DNA of 64,000 bases, taken from a virus. The notes below the pieces were generated by a model, which saw only the letters and a list, made by a program, of their open reading frames with translations, was not told where the DNA came from and did not search any database. Of the stretch, positions 11,899 through 12,025 are shown in pieces; the stretch's first letter is position 1, and each line of letters opens with the position of its first letter. The position numbers and the translations under genes are program-made. The stretch lies in IMG/VR virus record IMGVR_UViG_3300026484_000295, positions 32,001-96,000 of that record; one strand, 5' to 3'.

Positions 11899-11925
11899 TT
11901 AAGTTTTTTGCACTATAACCGATAT
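11899..11925 (+). promoter_or_regulatory. Putative sigma28 (FliA) promoter
   Basis: TTAA-N15-ACCGATAT, 100 nt upstream of the flagellin ATG; compare the TAAA-N15-GCCGATAA consensus. Confidence 0.65.
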
Positions 11926-11986
11926 TGTAATTGTAAGAGAAATATATTCTTTATTATATCATATTTCTCTTTAAATAAAACTTAAA

Positions 11987-12023
11987 TGGAAAAGGAAATT
12001 CCACTTTACACAATGGAGGTGTA
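11987..12023 (+). promoter_or_regulatory. Two GGA-loop hairpins, putative CsrA-binding sites in the flagellin 5' UTR
   Basis: TGGAA-AAGGAAA-TTCCA (11987-12003) and TACAC-AATGGAG-GTGTA (12007-12023). The second contains the SD. Confidence 0.65.
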
Positions 12024-12025
12024 TT

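Follow-up and report, generated by a model that had tools for sequence, protein, structure and literature searches.

We propose, with a confidence somewhat above even, that the 127-bp stretch preceding the flagellin gene of a giant T4-like phage functions as a late ('class 3') flagellar module, in which transcription would depend on FliA and translation would be gated by CsrA and FliW, with all of these factors supplied by the host. Three small elements can be read in this stretch (11899-12025): a sigma-28 type promoter, a stem-loop close to the predicted 5' end of the mRNA, and a pair of hairpins with GGA in their loops, the second of which lies over the Shine-Dalgarno sequence.

The phage record and its flagellin family

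The window, which is the whole 64,000-nucleotide stretch of DNA analysed here, corresponds to positions 32001-96000 of a 172,404-bp IMG/VR record with a CheckV completeness of 61% and a GC content of ~29%. The gene set is that of a large T4-like phage and includes a T4-type topoisomerase II large subunit, ribonucleotide reductase, a head maturation protease and tail-fibre-like proteins, together with dUTPase, a ClpP-like protein, a Cas4-like nuclease, topoisomerase I, DnaJ and a CCA-adding-type enzyme. The flagellin gene (12026-12829, + strand) encodes a protein of 267 aa that consists of D0/D1 only (Pfam Flagellin_N 5.7e-38, Flagellin_C 1e-15). A 162-bp spacer (11864-12025) is bounded by this gene on one side and by a divergent DnaJ gene on the other, and an 88-aa ORF and then a FlaG-like gene follow 3' of the flagellin.

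A metagenome scan recovered 21 loci with flagellins 62-91% identical to that of the window, 20 of which have enough upstream sequence for promoter comparison. The closest relative (L085, the same locus as L002) is a 289,880-bp IMG/VR record that is 87% complete. The DnaJ-proximal half of the spacer (11864-11926) is 100% identical between the two phages, whose DnaJ proteins are 87% identical; this half probably contains the DnaJ promoter and leader.

A second group of flagellins, 274 aa long, with the canonical MSFRINTN start and 50-56% identical to the window's protein, is carried by L118 (IMGVR_UViG_3300026488_000015, 146 kb) and L119 (IMGVR_UViG_3300026484_000001, 155 kb), the match spanning 4001-4825 in each. 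Maximum-likelihood analysis places the two phage clades (267-269 aa and 274 aa) as sisters with 100/100 support, and both are nested in a 100/100 clade alongside short Campylobacterota flagellins and a group of 272-aa proteins, among them one labelled Desulfobulbaceae. Because the second clade is also phage-borne and is sister to the first, the flagellin seems to be ancient and widely distributed among these giant phages. The nearest cellular flagellins, found among 301 Campylobacterota genomes, are short and 43-45% identical over their full length; the best flagellin match of a GTDB pattern scan reached 39%.

Several of the other contigs also have phage features. L100 carries a T4-type topoisomerase II and a UvsX-like gene, L101 has a gene 60% identical to one of this phage, and L094 has a PHROG family match. 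As a separate observation, the contigs of L093, L094, L096 and L104 (151-232 kb, GC 19-22%) place the same flagellin beside odd genes, among them weak FtsH-like matches, a 1650-aa LRR protein, a TROVE/Ro60-like gene, a mechanosensitive channel, YqiJ and a SWEET-like transporter. Only L094 of these four is phage-like, and L093, L096 and L104 may be phages, plasmids or tiny cells.

A sigma-28 type promoter

The earlier note had proposed a sigma-28 promoter of the form TTAA-N15-ACCGATAT, and this is present at 11899-11925, with TTAA at 11899-11902 followed by a gap of 15 nt. The match is in fact longer than noted, as TTAAGTTT-N11-ACCGATAT corresponds to the extended sigma-28 form. The putative -35 element, TTAAGTTT (11899-11906, + strand), contains the TAAA box and agrees with 7 of the 8 positions of the extended consensus TAAAGTTT. 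The putative -10 element, ACCGATAT (11918-11925, + strand, core CCGATA), follows 11 nt after the -35 box and conforms to the class in both sequence, (G)CCGATA(A/T), and distance, the extended boxes of sigma-28 promoters being 11 nt apart. A late flagellar gene lies downstream, with the flagellin start 100 nt from the promoter and FlaG further on. The boxes and spacing equal those of verified E. coli FliA promoters such as that of ycgR, which was verified by ChIP, is FliA-dependent and reads TTAAGTTTT...ACCGATA in the same geometry (PMC4183435 Table 2).

Taken as a single sequence, the match is not significant. The loose form of the motif occurs at the chance rate, with 3 copies in the 172-kb genome and 3.5 expected. 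The extended motif with at most one mismatch has a single match in the 64-kb window, which is the flagellin promoter itself, and with up to 2 mismatches there are 3 matches in the window compared with 1.2 expected. What lends the region significance is instead where it lies, together with the conservation and covariation seen in the relatives. The promoter is kept in 19 of the 20 related loci as T(T/A)AAG plus a T-run, 14-16 nt, and (C/T)CGATAT, while the twentieth (L089) retains CCGATAT and has a weak -35 box. Conservation and likeness to verified promoters together support the sigma-28 reading.

We also considered and rejected a general class of phage promoters, as the motif occurs at one gene only and it is another word, TATAAATA, that is enriched before ORFs. 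This T4 late-promoter-like word has 75 copies in the phage genome, about what base composition predicts, and 31 of them (41%) lie within 120 nt upstream of the starts of ORFs of at least 80 aa, a clustering that fits T4-type late promoters. In the scan of the phage genome, TATAAATA was absent from the flagellin spacer.

Two hairpins with GGA loops

Both of the ANGGA-loop hairpins that had been noted are present, and the second does lie over the Shine-Dalgarno sequence. Hairpin 1, a candidate upstream CsrA site, has a 5-bp stem, TGGAA/TTCCA (11987-11991 / 11999-12003, + strand), around the loop AAGGAAA, in which the GGA occupies 11994-11996. Hairpin 2, a candidate SD-occluding CsrA site, has a 5-bp stem, TACAC/GTGTA (12007-12011 / 12019-12023, + strand), and the loop AATGGAG. 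Within it lies the Shine-Dalgarno sequence GGAGG (12015-12019, + strand), 6 nt before the ATG at 12026. The minimum-free-energy and centroid structures predicted by RNAfold consist of exactly three hairpins, namely the 5' stem-loop, hairpin 1 and hairpin 2. In both folds the leader thus has what is looked for in a CsrA-controlled leader, at least two GGA motifs in ANGGA hairpin loops, one of them (GGA 12015-12017) over the Shine-Dalgarno sequence. As for compensatory changes, hairpin 1 has them, and hairpin 2 occurs with at least 5 stem variants. An Rfam 15 scan of 11000-13600 with E up to 10 gave no match in 11899-12025. A 6-codon upstream ORF (12013-12033), with its ATG in the loop of hairpin 2, overlaps the flagellin start out of frame; it is lacking in relatives with an AAGGAG loop and so is probably meaningless.

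In the syntenic clade (the window, L085, L089, L092, L102 and L105) the 5' stem-loop, hairpin 1 and hairpin 2 are always present, with the upstream GGA 30-32 nt and the SD GGA 10-11 nt from the ATG. The stems differ by lineage, TGGAA/TTCCA in the window against TTGGAC/GTCCAA in others for hairpin 1, where the AAGGA loop is constant, and TACAC/GTGTA against AGAC/GTCT for hairpin 2. In the more distant loci L103, L087, L090, L091 and L093 the AAGGA loop sits on still other stems. When 21 phage and cellular leaders are aligned without gaps on the AAGGA loop, 84.8% of the cells of hairpin 1 are paired, compared with 63 +/- 3 in shuffles, and there are 28 compensatory cells where 9.3 +/- 3.6 are expected; neither value is reached in any of 500 shuffles. 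Double-sided changes occur in 5 of 5 pairs, and controls slid along the alignment pair at 44% or less. Since two window-type rows are one loop base out of register, these figures are conservative. Whole-module MAFFT alignments put the stems out of register because of differing loop lengths, and hairpin 2 was accordingly taken from the hairpin scan. These compensatory changes, and a leader plan shared with C. jejuni flaA, support the CsrA-like interpretation that the hairpins had been given.

An alternative that we regard as unlikely grants the sigma-28 promoter and takes the hairpins to be ordinary RNA elements, one that masks the Shine-Dalgarno sequence and so tunes translation or gates it by temperature, and stem-loops that stabilise, with the GGA motifs reflecting resemblance to the Shine-Dalgarno sequence and not CsrA binding. 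The fold energy of the leader is unremarkable (z-score -1.14), no more stable than that of shuffles, and the stems are short and AT-rich. In this AT-rich phage genome the SD hairpin alone occurs at 34 of 166 ORFs. The 3' arm of hairpin 2 also overlaps the extended Shine-Dalgarno sequence (GGAGGTG), so its conservation could partly reflect ribosome binding. Hairpin 1 is lacking in about half of the related leaders, some of which have the SD hairpin only and two of which have neither hairpin, and thus it is not essential to the family.

Nevertheless, the loop of hairpin 1 stays constant as (C)AAGGA(W)(G) while its stem sequence varies freely, and this loop is the CsrA recognition motif in PMC13418256 as well as the ANGGA of PMC4894983. 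The distance from one GGA to the other is fixed at 21-22 nt across two phage clades: in L118 of the second clade, promoter-like boxes and a 5' stem-loop are followed by CCTC/GAGG around AAGGAA and by TACAC/GTGTA over the Shine-Dalgarno sequence, with 22 nt between the two GGAs compared with 21 nt in the window. (L119 has a good sigma-28 promoter and a leader that is short and unstructured.) When the GGA motifs were held fixed and the remainder shuffled 500 times, the SD hairpin was expected in 6.3 +/- 2.0 of the 21 leaders and both hairpins in 1.3 +/- 1.0 (maximum 5), against 16 and 9 observed. Both hairpins occur at 3 of the 166 ORFs of the phage genome; the two ORFs other than flagellin (genome positions 148890, + strand, and 13619, - strand) appear chance-like and lack the AAGGA loop.

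An equivalent hairpin is also found in the flagellin leaders of bacteria that have CsrA and FliW. Cellular Campylobacterota leaders show TAAAGTT...CGAT, a GC-rich hairpin with a (C)AAGGA(W)(G) loop and then an AAGGA Shine-Dalgarno sequence, and CsrA and FliW are both encoded in all five of the Campylobacterota genomes with the nearest cellular flagellins, a set defined by flagellin similarity that need not include the phage's host. Hairpins with AAGGA loops are frequent in flagellin leaders of other phyla as well, for example in 14 of 18 Actinomycetota loci. The hairpin alone therefore names no single host phylum, and its spread across phyla fits an old control of flagellin by CsrA and FliW.

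The 5'-proximal stem-loop

The 11-bp inverted repeat described in the earlier note is perfect, with arms at 11935-11945 and 11961-11971 and a loop of 15 nt. The resulting stem-loop (11935-11971, + strand) would begin ~0-3 nt after the predicted transcription start. It would be possible to see in it a DNA operator bound by a dimeric repressor, as a perfect palindrome at ~+3 to +39 occupies a classic roadblock position. We consider this improbable, because most relatives have a stem-loop at the equivalent place that is unrelated in sequence and differs in the lengths of both arms and loop, which better fits a structural role in RNA, and because the loop tolerates 3 of the 8 spacer substitutions that separate L085 from the window, with none in the arms. 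From its position, and from conservation of structure without conservation of sequence, we suggest that the stem-loop probably shields the 5' end of the mRNA.

Source of the regulatory factors

Searches for CsrA, FliW and Sigma70_r2 found none of them in the 172-kb record (61% complete) or in its 290-kb relative (87% complete), nor were FliD and FlgM found in either of these; FliS by Pfam was also not found in the phage's own 172 kb. Given these completeness values, the missing sequence could still encode a factor of the phage's own. The late sigma factor of T4-like phages is very divergent, and a Sigma70_r2 search would miss it. Phage-encoded factors that read the module, such as a divergent sigma or RNA-binding protein in unsequenced parts or beyond the reach of Pfam, are on these grounds conceivable. 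Yet such factors seem distinctly improbable, as a promoter motif at one gene makes no phage promoter class and this promoter equals the bacterial FliA consensus, in addition to the negative searches.

Maintenance of the spacer

L085 and the window differ by 8 changes in the 162-bp spacer (95% identity), whereas identity is 84.8% over the flagellin gene and 66% at third codon positions. The 8 changes are confined to loops and linkers and leave the promoter boxes, the stems and the GGA motifs untouched. Judged from this pair, constraint on the spacer is stronger than that at synonymous sites. That the module is a non-functional leftover of a recent capture of a bacterial gene, or a set of chance matches, is hardly credible, as the chance-level frequency of the loose promoter motif is outweighed by a monophyletic flagellin family that occurs on numerous large phage contigs ranging in GC between 19 and 38%, by a promoter kept in nearly all of them, and by a spacer that changes far more slowly than synonymous sites and avoids change in every element. 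The earlier note had called the host-type regulation 'retained'. Its host-type character stands, but the word understates the case; a monophyletic flagellin family in many giant phage contigs, taken with the spacer constraint, suggests maintained regulation as opposed to recent carry-over.

Downstream of the flagellin gene

Three nucleotides past the flagellin stop is a GC-rich palindromic hairpin (12833-12863, no strand assigned) with a perfect 14-bp stem, 7 G-C pairs and a 3-nt loop, in a genome of 29% GC. A T-run is lacking after it on the + strand, and it is probably a 3'-end, processing or partial terminator element. We think it probable that this hairpin delimits a stable monocistronic flagellin mRNA and sets it apart from the two genes that follow, although some transcripts would read on into the 88-aa ORF and flaG.

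The 88-aa ORF (12884-13150, + strand) is conserved directly after the flagellin in 12 loci, as a family of 88-109 aa (window, L085, L087, L091, L092, L093, L096, L099, L100, L101, L103 and L104). Its AF2 model is a four-helix bundle (pLDDT 82.7), and the top Foldseek rows are FliS chains (5maw_E, 6lea_A, 5xef and 3k1i_A) with TM of 0.69-0.81 and all with E > 0.2. For FliS, there was no Pfam match in this ORF at E up to 5, a PDB profile search was negative, and hhalign against five Campylobacterota FliS gave a probability of 0.3%. The ORF could possibly encode a shortened FliS-like chaperone, the suggestion of FliS coming from the modelled fold alone. The FlaG-like gene (13153-13461, + strand; Pfam FlaG 2.9e-7) also lies 3' of the flagellin in L093, L099 and L103.

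A model for expression of the phage flagellin

We hypothesize that host RNA polymerase with sigma-28 (FliA) would start transcription near 11932-11934, a few bases past ACCGATAT. FlgM keeps FliA inactive until the hook-basal body is complete, and transcription would for this reason be confined to cells whose flagellar export apparatus works. A consideration against the model is that T4-like phages usually remodel host RNA polymerase, so that a sigma-28 holoenzyme may or may not stay active during infection. The mRNA would open with the 11-bp stem-loop guarding its 5' end. A host CsrA dimer would then bridge the two GGA loops 21 nt apart, mask the Shine-Dalgarno sequence and stop translation. 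Export of flagellin would free FliW, which would strip CsrA from the leader, and synthesis of the phage flagellin would in this way be paced by secretion.

In agreement with the earlier note, we infer that expression would be restricted to flagellated cells and that the mRNA might titrate CsrA. The weakest part of that reading was that the phage protein titrates FliW, which is doubtful because the N-terminal end, to which C. jejuni FliW binds, is divergent in the phage protein. The C. jejuni FliW binds the N-terminal subdomain of flagellin and does not bind FlaC, which is D0/D1-only (PMC5466977), and the consensus of the window's phage flagellin clade is without the usual RINTN start.

A bolder version of this model, which we put forward as speculation and judge to be rather unlikely, is that a giant T4-like phage lineage wires a flagellin / FliS-like / FlaG module into the host flagellar checkpoint, with the leader mRNA acting as a CsrA sponge and the secreted protein perturbing FliW. 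If true, infection would reprogramme CsrA-controlled host translation and rebuild or disable the filament, a viral takeover by means of a decoy mRNA.

Comparison with known systems

The type of element described here is known; what is new is that giant T4-like phage genomes carry and maintain it. In our literature search, no paper turned up that dealt with flagellin genes of jumbo or vent phages, or with phages of this kind having sigma-28 promoters. The regulatory DNA points to use as a late flagellar gene, in export-competent cells only and at a rate set by secretion, which offers a concrete model of the reason for a phage of lytic type to devote a gene to a subunit of a host organelle. It may also be a natural case in which a viral mRNA titrates a global bacterial translational regulator. 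Mutation of the three small RNA/DNA elements should separately abolish transcription, stability and CsrA control.

The geometry of 28 nt is shared with the E. coli FliA promoters of ycgR, tar and tsr (Fitzgerald et al. 2014, PMC4183435 Table 2), and ycgR has both TTAAGTTTT and ACCGATA. Unlike in E. coli, the -10 box ends in AT and not AA, an ending that is also seen in the relatives and in cellular Campylobacterota-type leaders.

In C. jejuni, flaA has a sigma-28 promoter and a 45-nt leader with two ANGGA stem-loops, SL1 and SL2, of which SL2 lies on the ribosome-binding site (Dugar et al. 2016, PMC4894983). CsrA binds this leader with a Kd of ~50 nM and binding is lost on GGA mutation, compensatory changes are found across species, and the flaA mRNA titrates CsrA (PMC4894983). 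The phage locus resembles flaA in promoter type, in the two ANGGA stem-loops with the second on the ribosome-binding site, in a two-hairpin module of ~45 nt and in its compensatory changes, and flaG belongs to the same regulon. It differs in being carried by a giant T4-like phage in which no csrA, fliW or fliA of its own was found, in having a leader of ~93 nt with an extra 5' stem-loop and CsrA sites that are predicted, and in a flagellin that is D0/D1 only with a divergent N-terminus.

The hag gene of B. subtilis shares with the phage gene a promoter of the sigma-28 family (SigD), occlusion of the Shine-Dalgarno sequence by CsrA, and relief through FliW on secretion, all of which are predicted on the phage side. 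The CsrA sites of hag are BS1 and BS2. Exported Hag frees FliW, which inactivates CsrA, at a stoichiometry near 1:1:1 (PMC6529632). Unlike B. subtilis, which is also another host lineage, the phage brings only the target of this circuit and none of its regulators.

The only flagellin described from phages to date is that of temperate Enterobacter phages, which also supply a repressor. In that system the prophage flagellin FliCP, called the first known prophage-encoded flagellin in the 2026 paper on TldR, is paired with this RNA-guided repressor (PMC13418256). Both phage flagellins are expected to join the host flagellum. However, whereas TldR silences the host flagellin in the Enterobacter system, a TnpB/TldR-type domain was not found in the 172 kb of this phage, and control here would rest on host sigma-28 together with the CsrA checkpoint.
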